Origin: Candidatus Altiarchaeota archaeon | Lineage (GTDB): Archaea > Altiarchaeota > Altiarchaeia > IMC4 > SCGC-AAA252-I15 | Direction of reading: 5' to 3' | Length of the DNA: 64,000 nt | NCBI GenBank assembly: GCA_043800255.1 | Contig: JAZDNF010000017.1 | Span: forward strand, 27 to 64,026 | Part shown: one piece after another, positions 32,635 to 63,978 of the stretch | Position numbering within the stretch: the first letter of the stretch is position 1 | Layout of the letters: the number at the start of each line of letters is the position of its first letter | Notes under the pieces: generated by a model | Told to the model about the DNA's origin: nothing | The model's input: only the letters and a program-made list of their open reading frames with translations | The model's database searches: none | Program-made: the position numbers and the translations under genes

Positions 32635-32729
32635 TGAGAGATACATTAGTGTCTCAACTTACGATTTATTATTTATTCCCCTAGTTCATATTAGTTAGAC
32701 GGCCATTTACGGCTAATTTTCCCTACTAT

Positions 32730-32894
32730 GCGGGGGTGCTGGAGTGGTCAAACAGGCAGGGCTTAGGAGAACCCTTTTCTTTCTTAGGAAGAAAGAAAAG
32801 CGTTCGCGGAAAAGAAAGAACAATTAATCCGTGAACAGGGTTTGAAGTTACCCTGTGGCGCAGGCCTACGCGAGTTCGAACCTCGTCCCCCGCA
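32730..32894 (+). tRNA. tRNA-Leu(TAG) with 82-nt intron at position 37/38 (intron 32768-32849)
   Basis: Acceptor GCGGGGG/CCCCCGC+A; anticodon stem CAGGG/CCCTG with CT-TAG-G|A; long variable arm; GTTCGAAC T-loop; bulge-helix-bulge geometry at the junctions. Confidence 0.92.
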
Positions 32895-33082
32895 ACCTTT
32901 CCCACAGAAGGCATCGCCTTCTGGGGCCCCAGAAAGCAAAGCTTTCTGTGGGTCTTTCTAAGAAAAGGTTGATCAAAAGAAGAATACATTAGTGACATTC
33001 AAAGGGAAGGGTAGGGTTGATAAGGGCGGGAAACCGCAGGTTTCCTGCACTTATATTCGGACACTCGTCCCCCGCAACCTTT
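32882..33082. mobile_element. Miniature hairpin-rich insertion at the tRNA-Leu 3' end with 19-bp direct repeat
   Basis: CTCGTCCCCCGCAACCTTT at 32882-32900 and 33064-33082; interior carries AAAAGGTTGATCAAAA and several GC-rich hairpins. Confidence 0.7.
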
Positions 33083-33121
33083 TTCTTAACTTTTCTTATT
33101 TGTGTGTTCGTATAGTCTATT

Positions 33122-33625
33122 ATGGTTGGTAAGCGTGGTAATCCTAGTCCGAAGCTGCCGGAATCCCATGGTGTGCCGGCTGCTGAGACACTGTGGCTGC
33201 CGCCTCACTACAGCAAAGAGGTGAGGGATAAGGGCGGCCTGGAGAAGGCAGTCATCTGGTCTGTTGAAGACGTTGTAGACTTCATCTTCCCGAAAAAATA
33301 TCAGCCTAAGTACTTTGAGGTGGCTACGAAGTTCCTGAAGATCGTGCTGGAGAGGGACTGGGTGACTAAGAAGGACATCAGCAGGTTCCTCAAGGAGAAC
33401 GGCTACAGCCGCTCCACATTGGAGAATAAGATAATACCGAAGCTGGTGAGGTTCGGGCTGATAAAGAGGGAGAGGGAGATAACAGCTGGTATGGGTAAGG
33501 GCAGGTCCCTGATACTCTCGGATTCGATGACGTTCACCAACTATTTGGAGAGGATAGCCTTCGGCTGGAACATGCTCGTCTCAACCGCCAGGCAGAAGAA
33601 GGTTAAAGGTCAGTCTGCGACGTAG
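33122..33625 (+). CDS. Conserved hypothetical protein with putative winged-helix domain
   Basis: ISRFLKENGYSRSTLENKIIPKLVRFGLIKR HTH-like segment. Confidence 0.7.
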   Translation: MVGKRGNPSPKLPESHGVPAAETLWLPPHYSKEVRDKGGLEKAVIWSVEDVVDFIFPKKYQPKYFEVATKFLKIVLERDWVTKKDISRFLKENGYSRSTLENKIIPKLVRFGLIKREREITAGMGKGRSLILSDSMTFTNYLERIAFGWNMLVSTARQKKVKGQSAT

Positions 33626-34374
33626 ATTCCAACGCCTTCCTTGAACTTTATGCTGTGGATGTTCTCGCTGTGAGGCGTTCCGCGCATCTTCTCGATGGTC
33701 AAGGTTCTGCCGGCGTCAGGGCCTGCTGCAGAATAATGCAAGGTTATGACGCCGTCAACCACGTACTCTTCTACGCCGTGCTTCGAGACTCTGCCCTTCT
33801 CGATTATGTCGGATATGAGTATGGACGTGAGGCCGGCCTGCTGCAACCTGTAATTGATGTAGAGTATGGCATCCCTCACCTCATTCTCCTTCTGGAGGAT
33901 GTTGTCCAACGCGGGGAGGCTGTCAACTACAACCCTCTTCGCACCTATCTTGTCCGCGACCTTTATGACAAGGTCGACTATGCCCTGGAAGTTGACTTCG
34001 CCAGGCAGGAGTGAGAAACTTGAGTCAGGGACTACAGGAGTCTTGACTTTCATGTCCTTGGTGCCTATCCTCGAGAGGCTGGCGTCTATTATCACCAGTT
34101 TTTTCTCGTTCTCAAGCTTTTGGAAGTCGAAACCGAGCGAGAGCATGTCATTCTTCAGGTTGACGGGATTCTGCTCGAGCTCGACGAGTACGGCAGGCTC
34201 GTTGAATTTCACTATGCCGTGATGGAGGAACTGGAGGCTCAGTATTGTCTTTCCTGTGCCGCATGAGCCTGAGATGAGGACTGACCTCCCCCTCGGGAAG
34301 CCGCCGCTTACAAGCTCGTCCAAGCCCTTTATTCCGGTCGGACACCGTTCCAATGTCTTCGTGTTCTCAGCCAC
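33610..34374 (-). CDS. KaiC-like RecA-superfamily ATPase (single domain)
   Basis: TGIKGLDELVSGGFP, GSCGTGKT, RVVVDS, EEYVVDGVI, EKMRGTPH. Confidence 0.92.
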   Translation of the reverse strand: MAENTKTLERCPTGIKGLDELVSGGFPRGRSVLISGSCGTGKTILSLQFLHHGIVKFNEPAVLVELEQNPVNLKNDMLSLGFDFQKLENEKKLVIIDASLSRIGTKDMKVKTPVVPDSSFSLLPGEVNFQGIVDLVIKVADKIGAKRVVVDSLPALDNILQKENEVRDAILYINYRLQQAGLTSILISDIIEKGRVSKHGVEEYVVDGVITLHYSAAGPDAGRTLTIEKMRGTPHSENIHSIKFKEGVGIYVAD

Positions 34375-35002
34375 TTTCTTCTGCAGAGTCCTTCTTGCCT
34401 TCTAACTGTGAAATCTCGCTCTCCAGTTCTATGAGCTTCTTCTGATAGTCTTTGACGATTTCCCTGAAGCTCTGCTCGTCCAACAATCTCCTGTGGTATT
34501 TCTGCTTTGACAATTCTATCATATTCTCTATCTCCTTCCTCTTGTTTCTGAGCTCCGTCAGGTGGGTTGACTCAGTCACAGACGTTGGAGTGTCCCCCAA
34601 CTCTTTCTCAAGCTTCTCCCAGTATTCCAGTCTTAGAGTGCCCTCGGCCTGAGACTCTTTTGGGCCTGGAGCAGCTTCGCCAGCCGCCTCCGACAGCTTC
34701 TTCTTGTCAGCATCGCTGAGAACGGATTGCTGCCTTCTCAGGAGGTCCTCATTCTCCCTTATCTTTTTCCTCTGCAGCAACAGCACCCGCTTGTTCTTAT
34801 TCAGCTCGGCTGTTACCCTGCCAACCTGGGGGGATATGTTGTACAAGTTTACGAGAATGAGGGCGAACATTACGACTAGGACGACTGAGACTGACTTTGC
34901 CCCTGAAACGAAGCCGCCGACTACTATGACAAACAGCAGCAGATTTACCCCAAGAGTTATTACGTTATCCTGTAAGTCCTTCGGCATTTTAATCCGCACC
35001 AA
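34367..35002 (-). CDS. Membrane-anchored coiled-coil protein
   Basis: Two N-terminal TM helices and a C-terminal coiled coil. Confidence 0.7.
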   Translation of the reverse strand: MVRIKMPKDLQDNVITLGVNLLLFVIVVGGFVSGAKSVSVVLVVMFALILVNLYNISPQVGRVTAELNKNKRVLLLQRKKIRENEDLLRRQQSVLSDADKKKLSEAAGEAAPGPKESQAEGTLRLEYWEKLEKELGDTPTSVTESTHLTELRNKRKEIENMIELSKQKYHRRLLDEQSFREIVKDYQKKLIELESEISQLEGKKDSAEESG

Positions 35003-35285
35003 GCTGCTCTAGGCCGCGCACCAGGCCCTCAAGGTCGTGGGCTATGTCTAAGCCCCGGTCTGTGAGGAAGACCTCCTTTATGCGGCCCTCCTTCTTGAAA
35101 TCAACTATGCCGTGCTTCCTGAAGTCGTTAAGTATCTTGAGAGTGTGAGTGTAGGTGCAGTCTATCTCCTTCGATATTATCGACGCGTACTTTCCCTCAG
35201 AGCCCTTCAGGCTCAGGAGTATGCCGACCGGCTTGCTGTGCAGCAGCAGGTTTATGATTTCCGTCTTTCCCTCATTTTCTTTCAT
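34989..35285 (-). CDS. Winged-helix (MarR-like) DNA-binding protein
   Basis: YASIISKEIDCTYTHTLKIL...GIVDFKKEGRIKEVFLTDRG. Confidence 0.85.
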   Translation of the reverse strand: MKENEGKTEIINLLLHSKPVGILLSLKGSEGKYASIISKEIDCTYTHTLKILNDFRKHGIVDFKKEGRIKEVFLTDRGLDIAHDLEGLVRGLEQLGAD

Positions 35286-35683
35286 TTTTTCTTCTTCACC
35301 CTGATTTCGAGCAAATCGCCCTTGTGGGATACCTTAAGCTTGTTGGGATCCAGAGGCGTTGATATGAAGTATGAGCTGTTCAAAGACACATCGTCTCCGT
35401 GGTTCTTGCTCCCGTCAGCGCCTTTGCCCTTATGGCCTGAATGCAGTACCACGTTTATTGTGTTGGCTGTGGCTTCCACCTCGACGCGGTCCTCCGTGTA
35501 GCCTGGAATCCGAGTTTTGAGGAAAACCCACTCACTGTCTTCTCCGATGTCAGCGTGCAGTTTTATCGTAGCGGGCATGTGGCCGGAGTGCCTGCTGAAG
35601 AATGGCGTGACAACCATGTCCTCAACAATGCGCCGGATCTCGGCTGCCGGCTCCCCTGTTTTTTCCTGGCCTTTCTTGTCCAT
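35282..35683 (-). CDS. Hsp20/alpha-crystallin-like protein
   Basis: IPGYTEDRVEV...DPNKLKVSHKGDLLEIRV pattern; start at MDKKG. Confidence 0.65.
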   Translation of the reverse strand: MDKKGQEKTGEPAAEIRRIVEDMVVTPFFSRHSGHMPATIKLHADIGEDSEWVFLKTRIPGYTEDRVEVEATANTINVVLHSGHKGKGADGSKNHGDDVSLNSSYFISTPLDPNKLKVSHKGDLLEIRVKKKK

Positions 35684-35687
35684 GCCC

Positions 35688-35951
35688 CTATTTCTTGGGA
35701 GCCTTGTCCTCAACAAGATCCCCGAGTTTTTTCCAGTCTGCACCAGCCTTTTTCATGGCCTTCTTGAGCACGGCTGACGGGTTGGAGGCTTCTATGCTCA
35801 GCCTGTAACCTTTTATGAGAGGGTGCGGGTCGTAGGAGTATGCGTCGACCCCCATGCTCTTCAGCTCGGATGATAGTACTGAGAGAAGCGTCTTGTCGTC
35901 GGATTCTATAACCAGCTTGTTTTTTTCGTTTTCTATTATCTTGCATTCCAT
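35688..35951 (-). CDS. rpoL: DNA-directed RNA polymerase subunit L
   Basis: TLLSVLSSEL, YDPHPL motif; directly downstream of csl4. Confidence 0.8.
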   Translation of the reverse strand: MECKIIENEKNKLVIESDDKTLLSVLSSELKSMGVDAYSYDPHPLIKGYRLSIEASNPSAVLKKAMKKAGADWKKLGDLVEDKAPKK

Positions 35952-35952
35952 T

Positions 35953-36513
35953 TCACGTCACCTTCACATTCCCGTAGTCTTTTGCGATTTTCCGATTCTC
36001 CTTGTGACCGCAGGAGGAGCATTCCATGTTCGTCTCCTTCTTTTCGGATTTGATGAGAGGGAGCCTGCATCGCTTGCAGAACGCTTTCACAACCCCGTAG
36101 TCTCCTTTGGTTGAGATGTCTATCATGTTGCGGTCGAGTTTTATGACTTTGCCTTTGACTATGTCGCCTATGCCGAACATGTCCTCAACCTGCTCCACAT
36201 ATCCGTCAGATATGTTCGAGACGTAGATGTTTGTTTTTACGTCTATCTCGTTTTCTATGCCCTCTATCTTGGAAACGTTCAAGGTCACCATGTTCTTCCT
36301 GAAGCCTGTCACATCTCCGAACACTATCTGCCCTACCCTGACGTCTGGGAGCTCCCTGCCGTTTACAGTTACTGTGTGGTTCTCCTTGTCCAGAGTCAGT
36401 TCGCCAACCTTTGACGCGTATATTTTCCCGTCTTCTGAGTAGGTTCCCTCGCCTGGGACGAACTCCTCTATCGTTCCCAGGTAGTCCCCAATCATTGTCT
36501 TTTTTCCAGTCAT
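35953..36513 (-). CDS. csl4: Exosome RNA-binding protein Csl4
   Basis: GDYLGTIEEFVPGEGTY, S1 domain, GVVKAFCKRC...CSSCG..ENRK. Confidence 0.93.
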   Translation of the reverse strand: MTGKKTMIGDYLGTIEEFVPGEGTYSEDGKIYASKVGELTLDKENHTVTVNGRELPDVRVGQIVFGDVTGFRKNMVTLNVSKIEGIENEIDVKTNIYVSNISDGYVEQVEDMFGIGDIVKGKVIKLDRNMIDISTKGDYGVVKAFCKRCRLPLIKSEKKETNMECSSCGHKENRKIAKDYGNVKVT

Positions 36514-36557
36514 TTTGAAAGTATGTGTTTTATTATATCCGTTTTAGTTTATATGTC

Positions 36558-37805
36558 TTATGTTCCCTCGTCCCAGCTTGAAAGATAGGACTTCTGCCGC
36601 TTGGTCAGAGAATCAATCCGAATGCCCATGGACTTAAGCTTCAGCCTGGCGACAGTCGCGTCGATGCTCTGGGGTATGTCGTATACTCCAGGCTCAAGAT
36701 CGTGCTCGTTGATGTACTTGCAGGCAAGAGCCTGGTTAGCGAAGCTCATATCCATCACCTCAGACGGATGGCCTTCGGCAGCGGCAAGGTTTACGAGCCT
36801 GCCCTCAGCCAGCAGATAGATGTGCCTGCCGTTCTTGAGAGCGTACTTCTCAACGTCATCCCGTATGAGCTTCTTGGACTTCGAGAGACGCTCTAGCTCC
36901 GGGATGTTTATTTCAACGTTGAAGTGGCCTGAGTTCGCTATTATCGCGCCGTCTTTCATCATCCGGACGTGTTTCCCTCGTATGATGTCAACGTCGCCCG
37001 TAGCTGTGACGAATATGTCACCATGCTTTGAAGCCTCGTCCATCGTCATGACCCTGTAGCCGTCCATGACAGCCCTCAATGCCAGCGTCGGGTCAACCTC
37101 TGTCACGATCACGTTCGAGCCCATGCCCTTCGCGCGGGCTGCTATGCCCCTACCGCACCAGCCGTATCCTGCAATAACAGCGGTCTTGCCCGCGAACAAC
37201 ACCGAAGTCGCCCTCAGTATACCGTCTATGGTTGACTGCCCTGTCCCGTAATGGTTGTCGAACATGTGCTTGGTATCGGCGTCGTTGGTCGCCATCACAG
37301 GATACTTCAAGGCCTTGTCAGCCTCCATCGCCCTAAGCCGTATTATCCCGGTGGTAGTCTCCTCGCAGCCTCCCCTGATTCTGTCCAGCAGCTCTGTTCT
37401 CTTCTTGTGAACCAGGAATATGAGGTCTGCACCGTCGTCTATGGTGATGTCAGGCTTGTGGTCTAACACTCTATTGATGTTGTCATAGTATTCTTTGTTC
37501 GTCTCGCCCCGCCAGGCATAGACGTTCACGCCTTCTTTTGCGAGGGCTGATGCCACCTCATCTTTGGTGCTCAGCGGATTGCAGCCGGTTATCGCGATCT
37601 TCGCGCCGCCTGCCTTCAGGGTTCTGACCAATACTGCAGTCTCCTTAGTCACATGCAATGCGAACCCGACTGTGATGCCCTTCAGAGGCTTCTGTTTCCT
37701 GAACTTGTCGCGAATCTGCGTTAGAACAGGCATGTGAGACTCAGCCCACTCAATCTGCAACTTACCCTTATACGCCAACTTAATGTCTTTTACTTTGTAT
37801 GGCAT
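36558..37805 (-). CDS. ahcY: S-adenosyl-L-homocysteine hydrolase
   Basis: IEWAESHMPVL, EETTTG, KHMFDNHYGTGQS, GYGWCGRG, NSGHFNVE, GHPSEVMDMSF; start ATG 37805 (TTG 37820 alternative). Confidence 0.96.
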   Translation of the reverse strand: MPYKVKDIKLAYKGKLQIEWAESHMPVLTQIRDKFRKQKPLKGITVGFALHVTKETAVLVRTLKAGGAKIAITGCNPLSTKDEVASALAKEGVNVYAWRGETNKEYYDNINRVLDHKPDITIDDGADLIFLVHKKRTELLDRIRGGCEETTTGIIRLRAMEADKALKYPVMATNDADTKHMFDNHYGTGQSTIDGILRATSVLFAGKTAVIAGYGWCGRGIAARAKGMGSNVIVTEVDPTLALRAVMDGYRVMTMDEASKHGDIFVTATGDVDIIRGKHVRMMKDGAIIANSGHFNVEINIPELERLSKSKKLIRDDVEKYALKNGRHIYLLAEGRLVNLAAAEGHPSEVMDMSFANQALACKYINEHDLEPGVYDIPQSIDATVARLKLKSMGIRIDSLTKRQKSYLSSWDEGT

Positions 37806-37919
37806 TTTCTTTTTCGTCAACGTTTTTCTTTTCTAAAAAGAAAAAGGTTGGAGTTCAGCCCACTCGATCTGCAACTTACCCTTATCCGCTAGCCTGATGT
37901 CCTTGACTTTGTAACCCAT
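37806..37919 (-). mobile_element. Displaced duplicate of the ahcY 5' end (37854-37919) plus 48-bp hairpin scar
   Basis: MGYKVKDIRLADKGKLQIEWAE vs MPYKVKDIKLAYKGKLQIEWAE; spacer contains CAACCTTTTTCTTTT-TAG-AAAAGAAAAACGTTG. Confidence 0.8.
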
Positions 37920-37981
37920 TTTCGGACTTAGATATTCCCCATGAGGGAATAAAAATCGCAGAAGCCTAGATTCCTGTTTGC

Positions 37982-38341
37982 TCAGAAAGGCCTCGCAGTA
38001 GGCCTGAAAGTCCACTTGGATTGTTTTCCAGCATCCTCCTGCTTTGACGTTTCCGCACGGTCTTCGACTTTTCCGGCGTAAGACTCCCAGCCGTCGTCCA
38101 TGGTGTAGTAGTCGCTGTTAGAGTCTATTGACAGAATCTGCCCATCCTGGATCAGTTTCTCCTGGCCTTCCTCCGCTAAGAGGAGCTCCAGGTGGGCGTC
38201 ATTCGACCTGTCATCTTTTGAGACAACGTAAAGTCCCACCGTTTTGCCTCTCCTGAGCTCTCCGGCTGCTATAGCATCGTCAAGCAGTTCAACAGGTACC
38301 CCCCTGATGTACTCCAGTTTTCGTATAACAACCTCTGCCAT
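37982..38341 (-). CDS. Hypothetical protein
   Basis: 119-aa ORF with GGTGA RBS upstream. Confidence 0.6.
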   Translation of the reverse strand: MAEVVIRKLEYIRGVPVELLDDAIAAGELRRGKTVGLYVVSKDDRSNDAHLELLLAEEGQEKLIQDGQILSIDSNSDYYTMDDGWESYAGKVEDRAETSKQEDAGKQSKWTFRPTARPF

Positions 38342-38422
38342 AGTATCACCTAAAAAATTTGAAACAGAATATTGGACGTGCGGGTATAAAAATCAGCAGG
38401 TGAAAAGTAGTATAGCATCAGA

Positions 38423-39442
38423 ATGAAAGTCAAAATTGGCACAAAGCTAAAGGACTACAGAACCGTCTGGCTTGATGAGTCTGTAGTGAAGATGATAGAC
38501 CAGCCGAGCCTGCCGCACGAATTCAGAATCCACGAGTGCAAGACATACGAGGACACCGCCAACGCCATAAGGACGATGATTGTGAGGGGCGCTCCAGCGA
38601 TTGGGGCGTCAGCATGCTATGGGATGGCACAGGCAGCATTGCAGGGGGAAGACCTAAGAGAGGCTGAGAGCGTGCTCTCAGGCACCAGACCCACCGCCTA
38701 TGACCTCTTCGATGGGATAAGCTATTTCAAGAAAAATTATAAGGACGACGCCGCGGAGGTCGCTGGAAGATACGCGGAGGAGAGCGTCGAAAGGTGCAGG
38801 CTCATCGGAGTGCACGGCGGGAAGCTCATAGAGGACGGGATGCGGCTTCTGACTCACTGCAACGCCGGCGCCCTCGGCTGCGTGGACTGGGGAACTGCTC
38901 TGGCTCCGATGAGGGTTGCGAACAATAATGGGGAAAAAATTTTCGTCTACGTCGATGAGACCAGGCCGAGATGCCAGGGGTCGAGGCTGACGTCTTGGGA
39001 GCTCTATAACGAGGACATAGAGCACAGGATAATAGCAGACAATGCCGCGGGATTTTACATGAGAAGAGGCGAAATTGACCTGTGCATCGTCGGCGCCGAC
39101 AGGATCGCGGCAAACGGCGACGTCGCCAACAAGATCGGAACATACGAGAAGGCTGTGCTCGCAAAGGAGAATAGCATACCCTTTTATGTTGCAGCCCCCT
39201 CAAGCACAATAGACCTAGGATGCGAAAGCGGCCTTGACATTCCAATAGAGGAGCGAGCGGAAGAGGAGGTCCTCAGCATGTGGGGCTATGCCGAGGGAAA
39301 AATAAGATCGGTGAGGATTGCTGGCAGAGGCTGCAGAGCCCTGAACCCAGCATTTGATGTCACCCCTGCAAAGTATGTGACAGGCATAATAACGGAAAGC
39401 GGAATTCTGAAGCCGAAAGACGTTAAGAAGATAAAACGTTGA
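38423..39442 (+). CDS. mtnA: S-methyl-5-thioribose-1-phosphate isomerase
   Basis: VRGAPAIG, TRPTA, THCNAG, DETRP, GADRIAANGDVANKIGTY, NPAFDVTP. Confidence 0.93.
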   Translation: MKVKIGTKLKDYRTVWLDESVVKMIDQPSLPHEFRIHECKTYEDTANAIRTMIVRGAPAIGASACYGMAQAALQGEDLREAESVLSGTRPTAYDLFDGISYFKKNYKDDAAEVAGRYAEESVERCRLIGVHGGKLIEDGMRLLTHCNAGALGCVDWGTALAPMRVANNNGEKIFVYVDETRPRCQGSRLTSWELYNEDIEHRIIADNAAGFYMRRGEIDLCIVGADRIAANGDVANKIGTYEKAVLAKENSIPFYVAAPSSTIDLGCESGLDIPIEERAEEEVLSMWGYAEGKIRSVRIAGRGCRALNPAFDVTPAKYVTGIITESGILKPKDVKKIKR

Positions 39443-39444
39443 GC

Positions 39445-39678
39445 CTATTTCTCTGAAACCCTTAAACCTTTAGCCCATACTACAGGCTGGTCAGGCTCTA
39501 TTGAGAGTATAGGATTCCTGGCGAAAACCCCTGAACCTGAGAGTTTAGTGCCATCCAGCGAATCAGTTCCGACCGCAACACCCCACACTATCGCTCGAGC
39601 AATGTCCTTTGGTTCTAAGCCGTTCAGTCTGCTTAAATCCACCGGACGGGCTGCGGCCCGCTCAATCAGCTTTTCCAT
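39445..39678 (-). CDS. Hypothetical protein
   Basis: 77-aa ORF only. Confidence 0.45.
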   Translation of the reverse strand: MEKLIERAAARPVDLSRLNGLEPKDIARAIVWGVAVGTDSLDGTKLSGSGVFARNPILSIEPDQPVVWAKGLRVSEK

Positions 39679-39710
39679 GCCAAAGTATTAGGGGAAGACT
39701 AGAATAAAAA

Positions 39711-39962
39711 TCAAGCTCTGATGTGTTTTTCCATTATTTTGGAGAGTATTGTCAGAAATTCGCCCTCCTCGTCCGCAGTCAGTTTTTTAGTGCTTAAGCC
39801 GACGATGCCGAAGTCGTCTTTTTTCACCACGAGGGCAAGCTGCTTTGACGGCGGGTCTCCCAGTATCTTCTCAAGGCGGGAGTTTCCGTCAATATCCTCT
39901 ATTATCCTGTAAAGGATGTGCAATTTCGCGGCAAATAATGGTTTCTCGTCTGCAACAGCCAT
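39711..39962 (-). CDS. Hypothetical protein
   Basis: 83-aa ORF only. Confidence 0.5.
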   Translation of the reverse strand: MAVADEKPLFAAKLHILYRIIEDIDGNSRLEKILGDPPSKQLALVVKKDDFGIVGLSTKKLTADEEGEFLTILSKIMEKHIRA

Positions 39963-40071
39963 TGTGTAAGGGTATTGTTTTTTAAATAATAATAGACTGA
40001 AATCAGCTTATTTCGGCCTGAACCGAAGAAAAACCCCGGACTTTTTATTGGAAGTACTTCAATAGTATAGC

Positions 40072-41490: not shown

Positions 41491-41491
41491 G

Positions 41492-42961: not shown

Positions 42962-42990
42962 ATAAAAGTATGCGTATAATACTTTATATC

Positions 42991-44198: not shown

Positions 44199-44232
44199 GA
44201 GGGGTTAATATTTTTTACTGTGATAGTATAAC

Positions 44233-44937: not shown

Positions 44938-44990
44938 GGCGTCGCCGGGATTGAGAATACTTTTATTGCCGGCATACTAAGATATACCTT

Positions 44991-47613: not shown

Positions 47614-47615
47614 GG

Positions 47616-51434: not shown

Positions 51435-51486
51435 AGATTAGGCATTAATATAGAATTATCTCATATATTTTAGGGTTTTTTCTAAG

Positions 51487-53175: not shown

Positions 53176-53178
53176 AAG

Positions 53179-56714: not shown

Positions 56715-56743
56715 TATTGATGTTGAAAAATGTTATAATTTTG

Positions 56744-58393
56744 TTAAGGAATTAAAAGATTCTTACCCATGTAGGGTCCTGCTCTCTTGTAGCCGAATTT
56801 CTTGTAGTAGTCTCTGGCTCCGACTCCGCTGGTGACTAGGAGGTTTTTCATGTTGTGTTCTTTTTTCGCTATTTTTTCAGCCTCCTTCAGTAATTCTTTC
56901 CCGTAGCCTCTGTGCTGCCATTTTTCTTTCGCTTTCTCGCCCAGTTCGACCATTGGACCGTAGATGTGGAGCTCGCGTATGAGAGCGGTTTGGGTTGTAA
57001 TCTCAGGCCTGAAGGGCTTGTAAGGGATTCGCAATCTCAGGAACCCTATGAGGATGTCCTGGACGGTGTCCTCAAAGGAGAGGAAAATCTCCTTCCCTCT
57101 GCTTGCTTTATAGTCTCTTCTCACAAGCTCGATGTCAGCTGGATTAGGCTCTATCTCTGGAAGGAACCGCCCAACTTCCCTGCAGCGGATACACTGGCAT
57201 TTAATGCCCTTCTCCTCCATCCGGGAGTAGACCATCTGACCTAAATTAGAGGATTTTATCCCAGCCTCAACCAAGGGGGAGGGGATGTCCCGCATAATCC
57301 TCATAGTCCTAATCCAGGGCGGCATGATTTTCTTCACCTTTACTATTAGGTCTACGGCCTGCTCAGTCGACAGAGGCTCGAACTTGCCGGACTTCCAGTT
57401 ATCATAGTACTCTGTGCCCTTCAGAATAATGCACGGGTAAATTTTTACCATGTCAGGTTTGAACCTATCGTCTGTGAAGATCTTTTTGAAGGCGTCCAAG
57501 TCGACTTTGGGTTTGTTGCCTAAGATGCCGGGCATCATATGGTATCCCACTTTTAGGCCTGAATCCTTCAGCTGCTGGGTGGCTTCAACCACGTCCTTGA
57601 CTGTGTGGCCTCTGTCCACCATCTTGTAGATCCTGTCGGATGGGTTCTGCACTCCAAGCTCCACCCTCGTTACGCCGAAGCCTAACATGAAATCTATCTG
57701 CTCCTGTTTGGCCCAGTCCGGGCGGGGCTCGAATGTTAGGCCGACGCAGCGGACAGATGAGGACTCGTTCTCCCTGTGAACGTCCTCGATGTACTTGAAC
57801 TGATGTTCGCGTTCCGAATAAACCCTCCTAAAGCCTTCCTCCCCCAGCTTCCTGATTTTAGCAAAATTTTTCTTGAACTCGTTCATAGCCTCGAAGCATC
57901 TTTTGACGAACCACTCCTGGTAGTCTAGAGGCTGGGCTGTGAGTGTGCCGCCCATCACAATGAGGTCGACCTTGTCGATTGGGTGGCCTATGGTCTTAAG
58001 CTGCGCGAGCCTGAAGGTGACCTGCAGGTAGGGGTCATAGTCGTATCTTATAGCCCTCCTGGTGGCAGGCTCCTCGCCGGTGTAACTCTGCGGGACCTTG
58101 ATTTTCGGCCCTCCGGGGCAGTACTTGCATCTGCCGTGAGGGCACTCTGAAGGCTGCGTCATCGCTGCCACAACAGCAACGCCGGAGATGGTGCGTGTGG
58201 GTTTTTTCTGGAGCAGTGTGAGGACTTTCGCCTTCTCGGATTGTTTCGCATGTGCTAGTATCTCAGAATTCCTGATGAATTTGTTCAGGCCTAATTTGAC
58301 AGCAAGAGCGCGTTTTTCAATGTCGAGGTCTTCTCTGGACCCTATCTCCCCGCTGACTATCTTTCTGATAATTTTCCTGTAAGGACTGCTCAT
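56744..58393 (-). CDS. elp3: tRNA uridine(34) acetyltransferase Elp3 (radical SAM plus GNAT)
   Basis: CPHGRCKYCPGG, QSYTGEEP, RVELGVQ, CQCIRCRE, IRELHIYG, QHRGYG. Confidence 0.95.
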   Translation of the reverse strand: MSSPYRKIIRKIVSGEIGSREDLDIEKRALAVKLGLNKFIRNSEILAHAKQSEKAKVLTLLQKKPTRTISGVAVVAAMTQPSECPHGRCKYCPGGPKIKVPQSYTGEEPATRRAIRYDYDPYLQVTFRLAQLKTIGHPIDKVDLIVMGGTLTAQPLDYQEWFVKRCFEAMNEFKKNFAKIRKLGEEGFRRVYSEREHQFKYIEDVHRENESSSVRCVGLTFEPRPDWAKQEQIDFMLGFGVTRVELGVQNPSDRIYKMVDRGHTVKDVVEATQQLKDSGLKVGYHMMPGILGNKPKVDLDAFKKIFTDDRFKPDMVKIYPCIILKGTEYYDNWKSGKFEPLSTEQAVDLIVKVKKIMPPWIRTMRIMRDIPSPLVEAGIKSSNLGQMVYSRMEEKGIKCQCIRCREVGRFLPEIEPNPADIELVRRDYKASRGKEIFLSFEDTVQDILIGFLRLRIPYKPFRPEITTQTALIRELHIYGPMVELGEKAKEKWQHRGYGKELLKEAEKIAKKEHNMKNLLVTSGVGARDYYKKFGYKRAGPYMGKNLLIP

Positions 58394-58426
58394 CTTAGAA
58401 TACTAGGATACCATTCAGAAAAAGAG

Positions 58427-59701
58427 TTACTTTAGCAGTTCGCGGGCGATAACGAGCTTCTGTATTTGTGATGTTCCCTCCCCGATTTTTAATAATTTAG
58501 CGTCTCTCAGCAGTCGGTCCGCAGGGTATCTTGGGTCTTCGTTCTCTTCACCCTTGATATTTACGGCAAAGTTCGCTGCCCGAAAAGCAGCCTCAGAAGA
58601 GTAAAGCTTTGCCATTGCAGCTTTCATAGTCTTGTCAGGGCTTCCAATATCATAGGCCTGTGCAGCCTGGTAAACTAGCGCCCTTGAAGCTGCAAGCTCT
58701 GTCGCAATGTCCGCTACAGTGAACTCCTTACCTTGTGTGGGTATCGCCTGGCCATAGTATATCAGCTCCTGCATTGAGAATTCCTTCGCGTCCTTCGGCG
58801 TTTTTCCAGTGTAGTGTATTGCAGCCTCTAATGCGGCCTGATGGACTCCCAACGCTATTCCTGAGATTGAAAGTCTGCCCCGGTCTAAGGTTGAGAGGAA
58901 ATACGTCATAGCCTTGCCCTCCTCTCCGATAAGGTTTTCTTTTGGAATTCTGCAGTCTTCGAAAATGAGGTCGGAGGTTATTGATGCATGATGTCCTAAC
59001 ATACGAGGCATCTTCTTTGCAGTAAATCCTGGTGTGCCATTCTCTACGATGAACGCGCTAATTAGAGGTCTGCCGTCCTTTTTCCTGACGCCAGTATTTG
59101 CGAACACGGTAACAACGTCTGCGACAGCTCCCTGTGTTATGAAAATTTTTTCTCCGTTTAAGACCCACTCGTTACCTTTCAATACTGCTTTTGTCCTCAT
59201 TCCCGCAGTGTCAGACCCGGCATGCGATTCGGTCAAACCAAACGCTCCGATAATACCACCACTTAACAGTCCAGGCAGATAGTTTTGTTTCTGTTTCTCA
59301 CTTCCGAACGTCAGTATAGTGTCAGTTGCTAGTCCGCCCTGGACGTCCAGTATCAGGCCGACTCCTGCGCTTACTCTAGAAACTTCTTCCTCGACCATTA
59401 CCCACGGCAGTGCCCCCAAACCTGCGCCGCCATACTCTAATGGGAAGGAGACTCCAATGAGACCGAGCTTTCCCATGCGTCTGACAAGATCTAACGGATA
59501 TTTATCCTCCCTGTCGAGTACATCAGCTAACTCGTATCCTATCTCTTTTTCCGCGAAATCGCGGGCAAAATTGCGTATCTGATCAGAAAACGCTGCATCC
59601 ATGTTTATTGGCACGACTCTGCCGGCCAATTTTTTTGGACTTGGCAAACCGGTGAGAATGTGAGCTGCTCTAGGATCGCCTGGACGTAATTTTGTGCCCA
59701 T
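58427..59701 (-). CDS. Acyl-CoA dehydrogenase family protein
   Basis: FPLEYGGAG, FGLTESHAGSD, LNGEKIFIT, IGEGTSQIQ; start uncertain. Confidence 0.88.
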   Translation of the reverse strand: MGTKLRPGDPRAAHILTGLPSPKKLAGRVVPINMDAAFSDQIRNFARDFAEKEIGYELADVLDREDKYPLDLVRRMGKLGLIGVSFPLEYGGAGLGALPWVMVEEEVSRVSAGVGLILDVQGGLATDTILTFGSEKQKQNYLPGLLSGGIIGAFGLTESHAGSDTAGMRTKAVLKGNEWVLNGEKIFITQGAVADVVTVFANTGVRKKDGRPLISAFIVENGTPGFTAKKMPRMLGHHASITSDLIFEDCRIPKENLIGEEGKAMTYFLSTLDRGRLSISGIALGVHQAALEAAIHYTGKTPKDAKEFSMQELIYYGQAIPTQGKEFTVADIATELAASRALVYQAAQAYDIGSPDKTMKAAMAKLYSSEAAFRAANFAVNIKGEENEDPRYPADRLLRDAKLLKIGEGTSQIQKLVIARELLK

Positions 59702-59727
59702 ATGTAATCTTAGACGCTCAGAATTAA

Positions 59728-60633
59728 TTAATCCTTTTTCCTGGCCAGATACCGTGCAGCTTTTATGAGTGCCATACATCCCTGGCCTGCTGCGATAACG
59801 TACTGGTACTCGTGGCCTGACGCGCAGTCCCCGGCTGCGAGAACTCCTGAAGTGCTCGTATTCCCTTGGCAGTCTATCCTGATGTGCTGGTGCTCGTCCA
59901 ACTCAACCAGATTTTTGAAGATTTCGGTATTTGGGACTCTACCAGCCTCGACTATGACTCCTCGAACCTTGAGCTGTCTTATCCTGTCCTTTTGCCCGTA
60001 TTTTAGGCCTGTCACAAACTTATCGCCTAATATCTCCTTTGTATCAGCGTTGTAGAGTATCTCAACTTTAGGGTTAGCCGTCACCTTCTCTATGAGGTAC
60101 TCGTGGCCTGTGAAGCTGCCTCCCCTGACGAGCACGTAGATTTTGGAGGCGATGTCCTTCAGGAAGTCGACAGCCTCGAGGGCGGAATTCCCTCCGCCGA
60201 CGACTGCAACGTCCATGCCAGAGAACAGGGGACCGTCGCATATTGAACAGTAGGTTACTCCCTTCCTTGCGAACTTTTCCTCGCCTGGGACGTTCAATTT
60301 ACGGGGCCTGGCGCCGGCGGCGATTATTACGGTCTTAGTGTCATATTCTTTTTTGTCCGTGACAACCCTGAAGTTGCCGCCCGCCAGTTTAACCTCCTTT
60401 ACGGTCTCCTCCAGCACGTTGACGTTGTTGAATTCCGCCTGCTCCTCCATGATTGAGGAGAGTTCAGCCCCGGTTGTCTTCACGATTCCAGGATAGTTGA
60501 GGACCTCTGCACTTTCTAAGAACTGGCCGCCGAACTCTGATGCTATAATCTCATACCTCATCCTCTTCCTGGAGGCGTAGATGGCAGCCGTCAGCCCAGA
60601 AATCCCGGCACCGATTATTATCGTGTCGTACAT
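59728..60633 (-). CDS. trxB: Thioredoxin reductase-like FAD oxidoreductase
   Basis: IIGAGISG, GVTYCSICDG, VVGGGNSA, AAGD; start at MYDTII. Confidence 0.9.
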   Translation of the reverse strand: MYDTIIIGAGISGLTAAIYASRKRMRYEIIASEFGGQFLESAEVLNYPGIVKTTGAELSSIMEEQAEFNNVNVLEETVKEVKLAGGNFRVVTDKKEYDTKTVIIAAGARPRKLNVPGEEKFARKGVTYCSICDGPLFSGMDVAVVGGGNSALEAVDFLKDIASKIYVLVRGGSFTGHEYLIEKVTANPKVEILYNADTKEILGDKFVTGLKYGQKDRIRQLKVRGVIVEAGRVPNTEIFKNLVELDEHQHIRIDCQGNTSTSGVLAAGDCASGHEYQYVIAAGQGCMALIKAARYLARKKD

Positions 60634-60634
60634 T

Positions 60635-61180
60635 TCAGTTGCACGTCTCGCACCCTTCCTCAAAGCACATGCACTCCGGCTCATAGTACTCTCTGGGATG
60701 CTTGCAGGAGGGACACTCCGTCGGTGGTTCAGTGCCCTCATGAATGTAACCGCAATTGCTACACTTCCATCTTATCGGCTTACTCCGCTTGTAGACTGTT
60801 CCATTTTCCACCATCTCCAGCAGCTTTTTGTATCTGGCCTCATGGTGGGCTTCGACCTCGCCGACTTCGGTGAAAAGTTTCGCGATTTCCTTCTTACCCT
60901 CCTTATCAGCCTCCTTCGCGAACTTAGGGTACATCTCCGTCGTCTCGTAGTGCTCTCCCTTGATCGCCTCCCTGAGGTTGGCTTTTGTGTCTCCAATGCC
61001 GTTCAGCCGCTTGAACTCGTCCTTCGCATGCTGTTTCTCGTTCTCAGCGGTTTCTTCGAATATTTTCGCAATATAATAGTAGCCCTCCTTCGCCGCGACC
61101 TTCGCAAAGTATGTGTACTTGTTCCTCGCTTGGCTCTCCCCGGAGAAGGCAGCCTTAAGGTTCTCATCAGTCTTGCCCAT
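60635..61180 (-). CDS. rbr: Rubrerythrin
   Basis: AFSGESQA, ENEKQHA, EAHHE, CSNCGY...CPSC; start at MGKTD behind GAGGTG. Confidence 0.93.
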   Translation of the reverse strand: MGKTDENLKAAFSGESQARNKYTYFAKVAAKEGYYYIAKIFEETAENEKQHAKDEFKRLNGIGDTKANLREAIKGEHYETTEMYPKFAKEADKEGKKEIAKLFTEVGEVEAHHEARYKKLLEMVENGTVYKRSKPIRWKCSNCGYIHEGTEPPTECPSCKHPREYYEPECMCFEEGCETCN

Positions 61181-61247
61181 TTTTGTCCACCTCAACAGAG
61201 TATTAGGACAGGATAAATAAAAGAGCCGGTTACCATTTAGTATTACC

Positions 61248-62396
61248 ATGGGGAATCTCAGAAACTTCTTCTACTCGTCGTTTTTTTCCGGCATAGCGGG
61301 TGGAGCGCTCAGCATAATGCTCCCATTATACTTCAGCCTCAAATTCGAGAGCTCGCTCGCCCTTATGGGCCTCGTGTTTTCAATATACTCTCTGCTTTTC
61401 ATAGTGCTGCAGATTCCATCATCCTATTTCGGGGACAGGTTCAACAGGCGGGGGATACTGATTTTCTCAGACATCCTGATGTTATCAACCATCATCGTCT
61501 ACGGGGCAGCCAGCAGAATCTGGCATTTCGCAGTGGGGAACGCCGTGAAAGGCCTGTCAGGCTCCCTGAACAGGGCAGCATCAAACACCGTCCTCGTCGA
61601 CATCTCCCAGCGGGAGCGGTTCTCAGAGTCTTTTGGAAACCTTATCGGCTCATTCTTCCTGGGCTATGTTATCGGCTATCTCATAGCAGGCCCTGTTGTC
61701 GGCATGATAGGATACCAGAGGGCACTCTATGGTCTAGCAGTATTCCAGGTCGCAGCCCTTTACTTCATTTACCAGATAAAGTATGAGCAGAAAAAACGGA
61801 GCATAAAGTTCAACATAAGGAAGTTCTTCCACAAGCCGCACAGGACGCTTAAGATACTGGCGCTCACCGGTTTCCTGGTATCCCTTGTCGAGGTCATGGA
61901 CGCGACAGTAACGGTCATATTCATCAAAGACGTTTTCTCAGCGTCGATAACCCAGATTGGGCTGGTGTTGGGCGCCGGCTATTTCAGCTTCGGAATCACT
62001 CAGATGATATTCGGAAAACGCTCTGACAGAGGGGGTAGGAAGAGGCATTATGTTTATGGGATGGGTCTCGCGCTCGTAAGCGCCTTTATGATTCCGAACA
62101 TGCCATCGCTGGTCGGTGTCGGCCTCTTCTTCGCACTGCTTTGCATGGGGCATGGGATAGCCTTCCCAGCGGTTATCGGGATAATAGCGGAACACACTTC
62201 TGAGGAGTACAGGTCCCAGGATTTCGGCTTCGTCTCAACCTTCGAGGAACTTGGCAAGTTCGTAGGGCTCCCGCTTATGGGCTGGATAGCAGACACCATA
62301 GGGTATGACACGAGCTTCTACTTCAGGGGAGCGCTGCTGCTGACAGCAGCTGCAATAGTCGTCCTGTTTGTAAAAGAAAAAGAAGGAGCCAATTAA
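61248..62396 (+). CDS. MFS transporter
   Basis: About 12 TM; FGDRFNRR and GKRSDRGGRK loop motifs. Confidence 0.9.
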   Translation: MGNLRNFFYSSFFSGIAGGALSIMLPLYFSLKFESSLALMGLVFSIYSLLFIVLQIPSSYFGDRFNRRGILIFSDILMLSTIIVYGAASRIWHFAVGNAVKGLSGSLNRAASNTVLVDISQRERFSESFGNLIGSFFLGYVIGYLIAGPVVGMIGYQRALYGLAVFQVAALYFIYQIKYEQKKRSIKFNIRKFFHKPHRTLKILALTGFLVSLVEVMDATVTVIFIKDVFSASITQIGLVLGAGYFSFGITQMIFGKRSDRGGRKRHYVYGMGLALVSAFMIPNMPSLVGVGLFFALLCMGHGIAFPAVIGIIAEHTSEEYRSQDFGFVSTFEELGKFVGLPLMGWIADTIGYDTSFYFRGALLLTAAAIVVLFVKEKEGAN

Positions 62397-62412
62397 AGTC
62401 TATCAAGCAAAC

Positions 62413-62522
62413 TGTGAAGAACCACCGGTCAGAGACCGGTGGCATCATATAAGAATAACTGGTGGTTCTTACACGCCTATTCCACCGGTCGCCTACCATC
62501 GGTCAATAGACCGGTGGAATAG
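62413..62522. repeat. Nested palindromic REP/PATE-like element, copy 2
   Basis: AAGAACCACCGGTCAGAGACCGGTGGCAT matches 9621-9649; AAGAACCACC/GGTGGTTCTT and CTATTCCACCGGTC/GACCGGTGGAATAG inverted repeats. Confidence 0.75.
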
Positions 62523-62543
62523 AGCGTTTTAAGAAAAGTTTGG

Positions 62544-63410
62544 TCAGAAGAGATATTTGAATCCTCTTTTATTGGCTTCTTGGATGGTTTTTTCGATAAT
62601 ATCCACAACATTCTTCGGAGTCTGAGTTTTAATGTCGCCGAACAGATAGTTGAAATCGGGTCCTTCCGCCATGCTATCTGCCTTGACTCCAATACTTAGA
62701 CGATATAGATCACCCCGTGAAAGGCGCTCCCGGGTATCTGGGGGTAAATTTTGAATGTTTCCCAGTTCTAAAATTCTGCCACTATTGTCTACAGCACAAT
62801 TCACTGCAGCATATCCCGGTCCAGCATTGCCACCGATAGACTCCTTTTCTACGATATTCTTGAATCTATCTGAGAATATTTTATCTAAATTAGATCTTAC
62901 AGTTCCCTCTGGACTCTGGACAGTTTCTTTATCAGGAATGGCAGTTTTTTGATATTCGACCATTGTACCATTTAAGGACGCGGTATCTTCTAATGTGAAT
63001 CTAAAATTACTGCCATCTGGTCTGATTTGGACGGTAAAATGCCTTCCAGATGATTCTCCATCGTTTATTGTGTCGTGCCCTTGGACATATGAGCGTCCGA
63101 ATCTATATGTTTGACCAAGGTCAAATTTATGAACCCCGCCAGATTCCTTTTCACCGTGCGCATCAAATCGCTGAAATTTAACCTTGTTGTGATCAACCCA
63201 AAATTTGTATGAATGAGAGCCGGCGCCAATCCAAAGTTCTCCTACAAATGTATCCTCAATACGGCCTCCTGACCGATTGCCGCCAATTTTTTTGGATTCC
63301 AACCCAACTAATTTTTTATGTCCAATAGGGAAAACCTCTGGCAGCTGCCTCGCTAAGTCTGCGATATTTTTACCATCATGCCTGTCAGCTTCCAAATATT
63401 TTGGGGCCAT
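62544..63410 (-). CDS. FHA-domain protein with unknown flanking domains
   Basis: FGRS, SGRH and SLNGT FHA motifs in the central region; AT-rich. Confidence 0.75.
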   Translation of the reverse strand: MAPKYLEADRHDGKNIADLARQLPEVFPIGHKKLVGLESKKIGGNRSGGRIEDTFVGELWIGAGSHSYKFWVDHNKVKFQRFDAHGEKESGGVHKFDLGQTYRFGRSYVQGHDTINDGESSGRHFTVQIRPDGSNFRFTLEDTASLNGTMVEYQKTAIPDKETVQSPEGTVRSNLDKIFSDRFKNIVEKESIGGNAGPGYAAVNCAVDNSGRILELGNIQNLPPDTRERLSRGDLYRLSIGVKADSMAEGPDFNYLFGDIKTQTPKNVVDIIEKTIQEANKRGFKYLF

Positions 63411-63472
63411 CAGTAAGTATCACCGTAAGATAAAAATAAGAATCCGACAATTAGGGAATTCAGCGACAAAGA

Positions 63473-63860
63473 GGGTGCCGACAGCGTGCCAGGCAAACTT
63501 TTACCAAAAATTTTCTTTTTGGGCAGCCTGCACTTTTTCTTTTCCCAAAGGAGCGAAGCTCCTTGGGCGCAGGGAACGAAGTTCCCTCGCGTCTAAAGAA
63601 AAAGGGCGGGGGATGTCAACAGCGTGCCAGGCAAACTTTTTAGAAAAGTTTGATCAAAACATGTGTGTTTCGGCCTGCGGCCTCAAGCACACTTACTTTT
63701 TGTTATGATAAGCAATGACAAAGAGGACATCATTCTTTTTCATTCAGTTAGGTGCTATCGAGCGCAAGCGAAGACGCGATGAACGCTTTGCGTTCATGCG
63801 TGCCAAAATTGCGAAGCGATTTTGAGCATAGCACATTTGATCAACCTTTGGAAAAGGTTG
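63473..63860. mobile_element. Tandem miniature hairpin elements at the 5S rRNA 3' end with repeated 21-bp gene-end copies
   Basis: Copies at 63473, 63611 and 63860; inverted termini CAAACTTTT-TAG-AAAAGTTTGATCAAAA (63632-63659) and TTTGATCAACCTTTGGAAAAGGTTG (63836-63860). Confidence 0.7.
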
Positions 63861-63862
63861 GA

Positions 63863-63978
63863 TGTCAACAGCGTCCCGGGGTTCCCGCATGTTATGCAGT
63901 ACCGCCCGGATCGCTGGAGGTCTTAACTTCTGTGTTCGGGATGAGAACAGGTGTTTCCCCTCCGCTGTGACCGTTGAC
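63863..63978 (-). rRNA. rrf: 5S ribosomal RNA
   Basis: Minus strand GTCAACGGTCACAGCGG...CATCCCGAACACAGAAGTTAAG...GCTGTTGAC; conserved CCGAAC and GAAGTTAAG; helix I GTCAAC/GTTGAC. Confidence 0.93.

Follow-up and report, generated by a model that had tools for sequence, protein, structure and literature searches.

Hairpin elements in a 64,000-nucleotide stretch of DNA (the window) from a Candidatus Altiarchaeota archaeon belong to a non-coding family whose members occur as insertions beside a second copy of a gene end, are polymorphic between strains, have termini that are shared across taxonomic families, can bear cargo genes and, as the same units, form tRNA introns. We hypothesize, with a probability that we put at roughly 0.55, that these elements are mobile, non-autonomous, modular, lineage-specific and structured, that they rebuild the gene end which they enter, and that they persist as tRNA introns. 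The window comprises positions 27-64026 of contig C16 in a metagenome bin of 1.75 Mb (17 contigs, 93% complete), and its sequence was found in four public groundwater DNA metagenomes of one study. In the following, G000 is the genome under study, other G numbers denote genomes of relatives, L numbers loci or contigs, and X1 and X2 sequencing runs. The genome collection covers the class with 61 species genomes and the order with 49 genomes, and all genomes compared are incomplete metagenome bins. An earlier inspection of the letters of the window (the sequence-only reading) had proposed a single non-coding family at gene ends and in a tRNA intron. All of its sites exist where it had placed them and the family was confirmed; the motif AAAAGKTTGATCAAA, with up to 2 mismatches, matches the window 4 times versus a mean of 0.36 in shuffled sequence, and 0 of 100 shuffles reach 4.

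The tRNA-Leu(TAG) gene (32730-32894, plus strand) with its 82-nucleotide (nt) intron at 32768-32849 is called by ARAGORN only with the intron option; at default settings the program reports 0 tRNAs in the window. Within the intron, the strict scan described below finds a long-form element in sense orientation (32775-32820, plus strand), which consists of a pyrimidine arm, a loop, a purine arm, CGTTCGCG and a mirror purine arm. A second unit lies behind the gene, as the left part of a 163-nt insert between two copies of the 19-nt repeat CTCGTCCCCCGCAACCTTT (32882-32900 and 33064-33082, plus strand). The first copy, delimited from the sequence and from the X1 joint with its 19 shared letters, is made up of the final 13 nt of the tRNA and 6 nt of trailer. 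At 32893-32979 (plus strand) there is a short-form hairpin, CAACCTTT...AAAAGGTTG, with a long hairpin nested in its loop and an ATCAAAAG tail; the nested hairpin is also present in G013. The insert ends with a terminal module that we call E55 (33000-33054, plus strand; a single copy in G000), composed of CAAAGGGAAGGGTA, GGGTTG and a hairpin from ATAAGGG to CACTTAT. Directly after E55 comes the second repeat copy (33055-33082, plus strand), which begins with a degenerate T-loop part at 33055-33063 and continues with the identical 19 nt. As the sequence-only reading had proposed, the insertion leaves the neighbouring gene whole, since the end of that gene is present twice. The short hairpin to which that reading had drawn attention is real, but it is only one module of a modular family, and the conserved 55-nt E55 in the same insert had been overlooked.

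An empty-site allele of this insert is found in a close relative. A 2.6 kb contig of a sister strain in X1 matches 32730-32881 without a difference, jumps to 33064 and reaches 34209 with 39 differences. The 182 letters that it skips (32882-33063) correspond to the insert together with one of the repeats, and at the joint 19 letters can be assigned to either side. Among the relatives the tRNA-Leu(TAG) intron varies between genera: it is of the long form in G000 and G001, of another subtype in G016 and G006, unrelated to the element in G002 and G026, and absent in G019. Searching window positions 32700-33150 against Rfam gave matches at chance level only (expect value, E, of at least 0.4). The X1 contig also differs upstream of the tRNA, where 470 nt (32260-32729) are swapped for 14 other letters; this second strain-variable block includes an open reading frame (ORF) for a basic protein of 54 amino acids (32470-32634) and a conserved region upstream of tRNA-Leu.

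The E55 module connects this insert with many others. When the stretch at window positions 32997-33059 (approximately; 60 nt) was compared with 40 relatives, it matched numerous unrelated sites in genomes of other genera and families, with 84-96% identity among the matches listed. Defined as CAAAGGGAAGGGTA, GGGTTG and a hairpin from ATAAGGG to either CCCTTAT or CACTTAT, E55 is present in 19 of the 49 genomes of the order with 1-12 copies each, and is missing from all 12 genomes that represent the two other families of the class; a reversed control pattern gave 0 matches. Nearly all distinct copies (43 of 44) form one hairpin that is closed at ATAAG/CTTAT; the inner stems come in 41 versions, and the mean folding energy is -17.2 kcal/mol, versus -4.9 kcal/mol for shuffles, whereas the 25-nt unpaired box is about 90-95% conserved across families. 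One hairpin with 41 inner stems indicates that the stem is kept by compensatory change and the 5' box by sequence. A scan of metagenomes for E55 matched at least 120 stretches; among the matches listed, 28 pass a hairpin filter of at least 11 pairs, and about a dozen of them read as the archaeal element, the rest being chance matches or other families. A different conserved, RNA-like region shares a GGGTTGATAAGGGG..CCCCTTAT hairpin in L297 (5316-5349), L218, L223, L251 and L301; this look-alike lies 14 nt after the 3' end of a group II intron in L297 and 600 nt upstream of the intron in L218. At L018 880-1040 (G030:C10), four successive small hairpin units, each ending in CTTAT, stand directly upstream of the start of the ribosomal protein S13 operon.

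What follows CTTAT is in most cases a repeat of nearby sequence. Among the 52 E55 copies with enough flank, 41 show a repeat of sequence located within 700 nt upstream, and it begins directly after CTTAT or after one more small hairpin unit with the same ending. These 41 include a few matches between repeated elements and one contig-end artefact; about 36 were judged to be true target repeats. As read, they comprise tRNA 3' ends from the T-loop (GTTCRAA; start at G53/T54) to 1-3 nt past the discriminator, tRNA 5' ends from +1 or slightly upstream, the 5S rRNA 3' end in G039, and the last 10-30 codons with the stop of about 8 protein genes. The repeated gene is always co-oriented with E55, and in no case does a gene end follow CTTAT as its reverse complement. 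Between the first copy and E55 there may be nothing, as in L015 and L016 with a 55-nt insert, or a long or short hairpin element and a small GGAATT..AATTC hairpin, as at many tRNAs, or a small ORF, as in G039. In G037 a HicA/HicB pair (Pfam E of 2e-21 and 3e-10) lies between tRNA-Phe and E55; apart from HicA/HicB, Pfam searches of the ORFs in inserts or next to them yielded no more than one weak match to FHA and another to acylphosphatase. Tandem E55 arrays occur in G031 and G044. The repeat lengths span 7 to about 95 nt, with 12 to about 70 nt aligned after E55, 7 nt in L258 and about 95 nt, including a diverged tail, in G013; alignments after E55 that exceed 70 nt or so take in repeated elements or the contig-end artefact.

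Repeats are also found where E55 is missing. At such sites in G000, no more than about 40 nt separate the start of the second copy from the last hairpin of the insert. Direct repeats of at least 12 nt flank 10 of the 37 catalogued G000 copies versus 54 of 3000 random sites, and this whole-genome tabulation, an enrichment of about 15-fold, supports the flanking duplications that the sequence-only reading had seen at its few sites. The tRNA-Arg(GCG) gene is affected at both ends: a 20-nt repeat from the T-loop is found at its 3' end, and at its 5' end the promoter and the first 20 nt are repeated, the element there ending in AACTTAT. A further repeat-flanked insertion is present at the 3' end of tRNA-Arg(TCT). 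G013 has an E55 insert at a glutaredoxin-like gene that G004 and G016, of the same genus, do not share; for a second E55 locus of G013, an orthologous site was not found in this within-genus comparison.

The two copies of a repeat do not diverge evenly. At the glutaredoxin-like gene of G013, 55 nt are alike with 1 difference, and the last 25 nt or so, including the stop, are only about 65% alike. In the 5' repeat of tRNA-Arg, the tRNA part is identical and the promoter part has diverged. Of 17 tRNA 3'-end repeats that were read, 12 differ, within the first 11 nt or so of the second copy, and 5 are identical. If a simple target duplication had decayed uniformly, this pattern would not be expected. 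A crossover in a short identical block, between the chromosomal end and a diverged end borne by the element (Campbell-type), would fit these sequences, as would a later exchange between lineages.

Could the repeats then be the attL and attR sites of plasmids or viruses that were driven by an integrase, and the hairpins what remains after internal deletion? The tRNA repeats begin in the T-loop and stop a few nt beyond the 3' end of the gene, a stretch that is a classic sublocation of integrases. The second copy differs from the first mainly near the junction, and an identical core joined to diverged homologous flanks, as after a Campbell-type crossover, is seen at ahcY (see below), at the glutaredoxin-like gene and at the tRNA-Arg promoter; the tandem arrays, the HicAB cargo and a 350-amino-acid tyrosine recombinase in G000 would also agree with this origin. 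However, none of the inserts examined contains or adjoins an integrase gene, the left edge is the same even in inserts of 55 nt (L015, L016), and one conserved terminus stands beside more than 20 unrelated repeats and not beside one attachment sequence. Moreover, 7 of the 19 E55-positive genomes, which are incomplete bins, have no Phage_integrase match, and no match was found in viral contigs. We consider this origin unlikely. Archaeal integrative elements of the SSV/pNOB8 type share with ours the tRNA-end repeats, the rebuilt gene, the leftover tRNA fragment, tandem accretion and cargo. The inserts described here differ in that they contain no recombinase, measure 55-600 nt, carry one terminus beside many repeats and also use protein genes and 5' ends. 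A case of an integrative element at a tRNA-Thr of Caldiarchaeum is given in one report (PMC3293823).

Where the elements sit in the genome was determined with a strict long-form scan, which takes a pyrimidine arm, a loop, a complementary purine arm, a spacer of 3-16 nt and a mirror of the purine arm. It found 26 elements in G000 and 0 in 5 shuffles. Together with the short form (hairpin plus ATCAAA), the catalogue reaches 37 copies, many more than the four sites that the sequence-only reading had counted. Introns of tRNA genes contain 13 copies, and another 10 have their start no more than 15 nt from a tRNA 3' end, each (13/13 and 10/10) in sense orientation; 3 are antisense, 16-300 nt downstream of a tRNA, and 3 lie within 300 nt upstream of one. 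The remaining 8 are divided among 5S rRNA (two), the signal recognition particle (SRP) RNA (one), the surroundings of a C/D-box small RNA (sRNA) on contig C13 (four) and ahcY (one). The tRNA genes with 300 nt on either side make up 1.35% of G000 and yet hold 29 of the 37 copies. The archaeal SRP RNA is located at C15:21916-22190 (Rfam, 132 bits), and its short-form element starts 1 nt later. The probable C/D-box sRNA (C13:11623-11685) has readable C, D', C' and D boxes and a weak Rfam sR2 match with an E of 1.6e-4, below the gathering threshold; at either end, its sequence is duplicated around elements of the long and the short form. With 36 of 37 copies at stable-RNA genes and ahcY as the sole exception, the proposal that the ends of essential genes are the targets does not hold in general.

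This distribution raises the alternative that the unit is an RNA module of the host, for termination, 3' processing or folding, and that its copies and the duplicated ends come from polymerase stalling and template switching with no dedicated enzyme. Besides the association with stable RNAs and the uniform sense orientation of the intron and 3'-end copies, the position of the T-rich arm agrees with such a role: it follows 10 tRNAs, the 5S rRNA, the SRP RNA and the sRNA, as oligo-T terminators do, the pyrimidine arm is a T-run at the position of an archaeal terminator, and G019 has the T-rich arm alone after tRNA-Leu. On the other hand, the copies in the 13 tRNA introns, where termination would harm, carry the same sense T-runs, up to T5-T6 and of equal length. 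The repeats start at the foot of a hairpin and the second copy has small indels near the junction, as template switching could leave them, but inspection of the right junction by eye revealed no microhomology (AT precedes the first copy in 1 of 23 cases, in a tandem array). The approximately 90-95% conservation of the unpaired E55 box suggests recognition by a protein, E55 is patchy with 0-12 copies per genome, and cargo genes are carried, none of which a host module would lead one to expect, while the failure to find an enzyme that co-occurs with E55 is in its favour. The sequence-only reading had named a terminator-like repeat, without enriched duplications or empty alleles, as what would speak against mobility; the motif does occur at the 3' ends of transcription units in the case of stable RNAs, and repeats are nevertheless enriched and an empty allele was found. 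As a full explanation we regard the host module, the leading rival to mobility, as doubtful; where the copies lie and how they are oriented it accounts for well. It is compatible with mobility, and the 3'-end copies, which may have a role in termination or processing, may well serve as terminators.

The structure of the elements bears on the same question. The long form begins with CAACC (or GAACC) and a pyrimidine arm such as TTTTCTTTCTT, followed by a short loop, the complementary purine arm, (C/G)GTTGAY(G) and a second purine arm, which is the first purine arm read backwards. In the short form, CAACCTTTT..AAAAGGTTG, the same plan is realized with arms of 4 nt and is followed by ATCAAA(A/T)G and a second hairpin; variant forms carry nested extra hairpins. 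Since the tracts are close to periodic, mirror and direct repeats looked alike in tests with 7-mers and edit distance. A run-order test was therefore used in which hairpins were chosen first and any third purine tract was accepted, with no pre-selection for mirrors. It gave 21 mirror, 1 direct and 7 uninformative cases in G000, and 26 mirror, 0 direct and 17 uninformative cases at the loci of relatives; a case counts as mirror if the A-runs of the third tract come in the same order as the T-runs of the pyrimidine arm, and as direct if that order is reversed. In three homologues of one composite of about 100 nt, the nested hairpins are constant and the three arms change together, as (5,3), (4,3) and (3,4).

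Templated copying makes no mirror repeat, and the mirror rule thus points to selection for a three-strand structure; with mirrors in 21 of the 22 informative G000 elements and in all 26 of those from relatives, such selection would also be expected of a host RNA module. The long-form layout is that of a hairpin that could take up a third strand, and its sequence would allow the sense strand to form a purine-motif triplex, or the antisense strand one of the U.A-U type. The homopurine mirror repeats of H-DNA likewise combine a single pyrimidine arm with a pair of purine arms that mirror each other. In the RNA triple helices of the element for nuclear expression (ENE) and MALAT1, the likeness is to the opposite strand, on which a U-rich, a second U-rich and an A-rich stretch follow one another as in a U.A-U triple helix. 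In contrast to these systems, the likeness is known here from the letters of the DNA, and the sense transcript would need a purine-motif triplex; we know of no natural RNA for which one has been established.

The single copy at a protein gene is found at ahcY, which encodes S-adenosylhomocysteine hydrolase. According to the ORF list, its functional coding sequence occupies 36558-37805 on the minus strand. A long-form element (37806-37850, minus strand; sequence and strict scan) separates the functional ATG at 37805 from a pseudo N-terminal fragment of 22 codons or 66 nt (37854-37919, minus strand; sequence and translation). Because the element lies upstream of the functional ATG and downstream of the pseudo N-terminus, the duplicated end of ahcY is the 5' end. 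The sequence-only reading was right about the element and the second gene-end copy here, and is corrected in that the 5' end of the gene is the one concerned. The fragment and the functional start differ at 1 position in the 23 nt beside the element and at 12 in the outer 42 nt. The nearest AhcY matches come from Candidatus Altiarchaeota bins (71% and 69% identity), followed by Bathyarchaeota (63-68%). Orthologues with 68-78% identity are present in 33 of 40 relatives and weaker matches (46-58%) in 4 more. The 5' end of ahcY is without an element in 25 of 29 relatives, and the other 4 have related elements. In G001 an independent insertion follows codon 8, with a 24-nt repeat, and ends with GGGTTGATAAG before the ATG; in G026, G036 and G038 related elements lie upstream of the gene. 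A contig of X2 covers the filled site.

The same units are tRNA introns. In G000, ARAGORN predicted introns in 26 of the 32 tRNA calls that were kept, and 13 of these 26 contain the element. As intervening sequences in tRNA genes they resemble archaeal introns of the bulge-helix-bulge type, which usually lie 1 nt 3' of the anticodon and would be cut by the splicing endonuclease at a bulge-helix-bulge motif. A composite of about 100 nt is the intron of both tRNA-Gly(GCC) and tRNA-Thr(GGT) and also the repeat-flanked insert 5' of tRNA-Arg(GCG), with 71-82% identity. Among metagenome contigs, an E55 composite forms a D-loop tRNA intron with a 7-nt repeat in L258 and an intron at the canonical site in L291. 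In Thermoproteales, related tRNA introns are reportedly shared between tRNA genes, which Fujishima and colleagues are said to have described in 2010 as intron transposition. The likeness to those introns consists in similar introns in several tRNA genes per genome and in gain or loss between close relatives. The difference is that the element is here also found outside tRNAs, at gene ends, 5S rRNA, SRP RNA, an sRNA and a protein gene, and flanked by repeats; these introns therefore have a visible source that is not an intron. A 2026 preprint with a census of Asgard tRNA introns (10.64898/2026.10.13.758758) leaves the route of intron arrival open, having found no general one.

For the mobilization of the elements, the whole G000 assembly was searched for Phage_integrase, RVT_1, Cas1 (PF01867), Y1_Tnp (PF01797), TnpB and DDE_Tnp_1. 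The absence of a transposase or integrase gene from the window, as first noted from its ORFs, was borne out: the only tyrosine recombinase lies on C7 and the only DDE transposase on C9. The former (C7:189815-193300, L185) has 350 amino acids and a C-terminal zinc ribbon. A strong XerA-like match was not seen in G000, and many relatives have one (E of 1e-40 to 1e-50). Of the longer elements that were suggested to enclose recombinase genes between the same termini, no instance was found: no insert contains a Phage_integrase ORF, and the cargo identified by Pfam was HicA/HicB. Across the order, integrase matches occur in 12 of 19 E55-positive and 18 of 30 E55-negative genomes, Y1 transposase in 5 of 19 and 12 of 30, reverse transcriptase in 2 of 19 and 4 of 30, and Cas1 in 4 of 19 and 7 of 30. 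G030, G013 and G038, with 9, 6 and 5 E55 copies, have no reverse transcriptase, Cas1 or Y1 match, and G038 has no integrase match either; of the other E55-rich genomes, G023 has one Y1 match and G039 one partial Y1 match and one Cas1. The bins being incomplete, such absences are weak.

These searches bear most directly on a derivation from known transposons, as IS200/IS605-type elements moved by a Y1 HUH enzyme or as miniature inverted-repeat transposable elements (MITEs) of casposons moved by Cas1. The subterminal hairpins resemble such elements, and so does the 5S rRNA insert with its inverted termini and a repeat of 14-20 nt; by analogy, the conserved TTGAT beside the hairpin foot may be compared with what we take to be the target of ISDra2. 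Yet G000 is without Y1_Tnp, TnpB and Cas1, as the E55-rich G030, G013 and G038 are without Y1 and Cas1. IS200/IS605 elements insert 3' of a fixed short motif and make no target duplication, and the duplications of casposons are fixed at 14-15 bp, as opposed to repeats of 7 to about 95 nt. With these repeat lengths, the enzymes missing in G000 and no co-occurrence with E55, both of the parallels first drawn, to casposons and to HUH systems, fail in defining features, and we consider descent from either highly unlikely. The palindrome-associated elements and MITEs of IS200/IS605, and the repetitive extragenic palindromes (REP) with their associated tyrosine transposases (RAYT), are likewise small, non-coding, hairpin-ended, multi-copy and extragenic. 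The present elements are distinguished from them by long and variable target repeats, by the strict sense orientation at stable-RNA genes and by the lack of a Y1 transposase in G000 and in three of the five E55-richest genomes. Casposons share the insertion at tRNA or gene 3' ends, the target duplication and the tandem arrays, and differ in that G000 has no Cas1 and that our elements have variable repeat lengths and no protein-coding capacity.

Of the other features of the window, the 5S rRNA gene (63863-63978, minus strand; Rfam RF00001, 77.7 bits) is the only one found by an Rfam scan at gathering thresholds, and an array of elements on the minus strand lies beside it. An insert of about 230 nt after the gene (63632-63860) has inverted short-form termini at 63834-63860 and 63632-63659 and is bordered by a second copy of the 5S 3' end (63611-63631) with a 15-nt exact repeat. 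Next come a long-loop element (63511-63607), with a pyrimidine arm, two nested hairpins, a purine arm, a spacer and a mirror purine arm, which has a near-identical copy at C13:42670-42760, and a degenerate inverted short-form hairpin (63473-63510) with a third, degenerate copy of the 5S 3' end at 63473-63493. The older copies of the 5S end are pushed outward from the gene. Just beyond the array, an ORF of 288 amino acids (62544-63410, minus strand) has a weak FHA-domain match (E of 1.6e-4). A half copy of the element that had been noted near 62532 (62530-62550, plus strand) has 2 mismatches and no hairpin partner arm; it is weak and probably the T-rich end of this ORF instead. A separate family of hairpin repeats, CCACCGGTC..GACCGGTGG with conserved flanks, occurs at window positions 62400-62530, C11:47400-47480 and C8:120170-120200 and is unrelated to the element studied. 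In the composition profile, blocks of low GC content (0.39-0.40 versus about 0.50 elsewhere) are seen at window positions 4001-8000 and 16001-18000.

As a mechanism, we hypothesize that the elements would be moved in trans by a protein that recognizes the terminus of GTTGAT plus hairpin (GGGTTGAT-hairpin). Entry by recombination inside a gene end would rebuild the gene and leave a displaced or copied end behind. Copies in tRNA loops that the splicing endonuclease can cleave would persist as introns, such insertions presumably surviving because the splicing machinery removes them, and 3'-end copies would be tolerated or favoured, as their T-rich arm could also end transcription. The non-autonomous, site-selective element first proposed is retained here in its family, its gene-end copies and its empty allele, and revised as to the end of ahcY, the type of target and the casposon and HUH parallels.

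Several points weigh against mobility. No known transposase would account for repeats that range from 7 to about 95 nt, and one E55 terminus adjoining more than 20 different repeats is unlike a sequence-specific integrase. RVT_1, Cas1, Y1_Tnp and TnpB gave 0 matches in the G000 assembly and no mobilizing enzyme was found there, none of the four Pfam families tracks E55 across the order (19 versus 30 genomes), a scan of viral contigs for E55 gave 0 matches, and an autonomous copy was not found. Because the order of hairpin, E55 and repeat at tRNA-Leu recurs in other genera (G002, G013, G026), the empty X1 allele could have arisen when the two repeats recombined and the insert was precisely lost, and need not be an unoccupied site. 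A functional RNA or terminator module would likewise account for the sense orientation and the strict placement at the 3' ends of stable RNAs. Finally, copies within one genome or between relatives are not independent and the flanking-repeat calls depend on the thresholds chosen; since many copies are related by descent, the counts overstate the number of independent events.

A description of these elements was not found in the literature searched, and Rfam has no matching family. They are known in kind, as small non-coding mobile repeats and as related introns in several tRNAs, and seem new in combination, which concerns the three-arm mirror, the one-sided conserved terminus, the variable gene-end repeats, the association with stable RNAs and the link between intron and non-intron copies. 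Tentatively, they might be regarded as a new class of archaeal element, a hairpin or triplex module without a protein that would integrate into or beside stable-RNA genes together with a target copy of variable length, by a mechanism unlike those of known transposases and integrases, and would be a direct source of tRNA introns in this order.

One family is thus seen in three states in a single genome, as tRNA intron, as trailer of a stable RNA and as an insertion flanked by target copies. Together with the empty site at strain level, these states supply donor, product and empty-site sequences for experiments on the origin of introns. The three-arm mirror structure has not been described for archaeal introns in the literature searched. 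The rebuilt gene ends, be they a promoter and 5' end or a 3' end with its stop, show compact genomes tolerating insertions. If the elements do form a new class, the arrival of tRNA introns in archaea would become testable with defined donor and recipient sequences.

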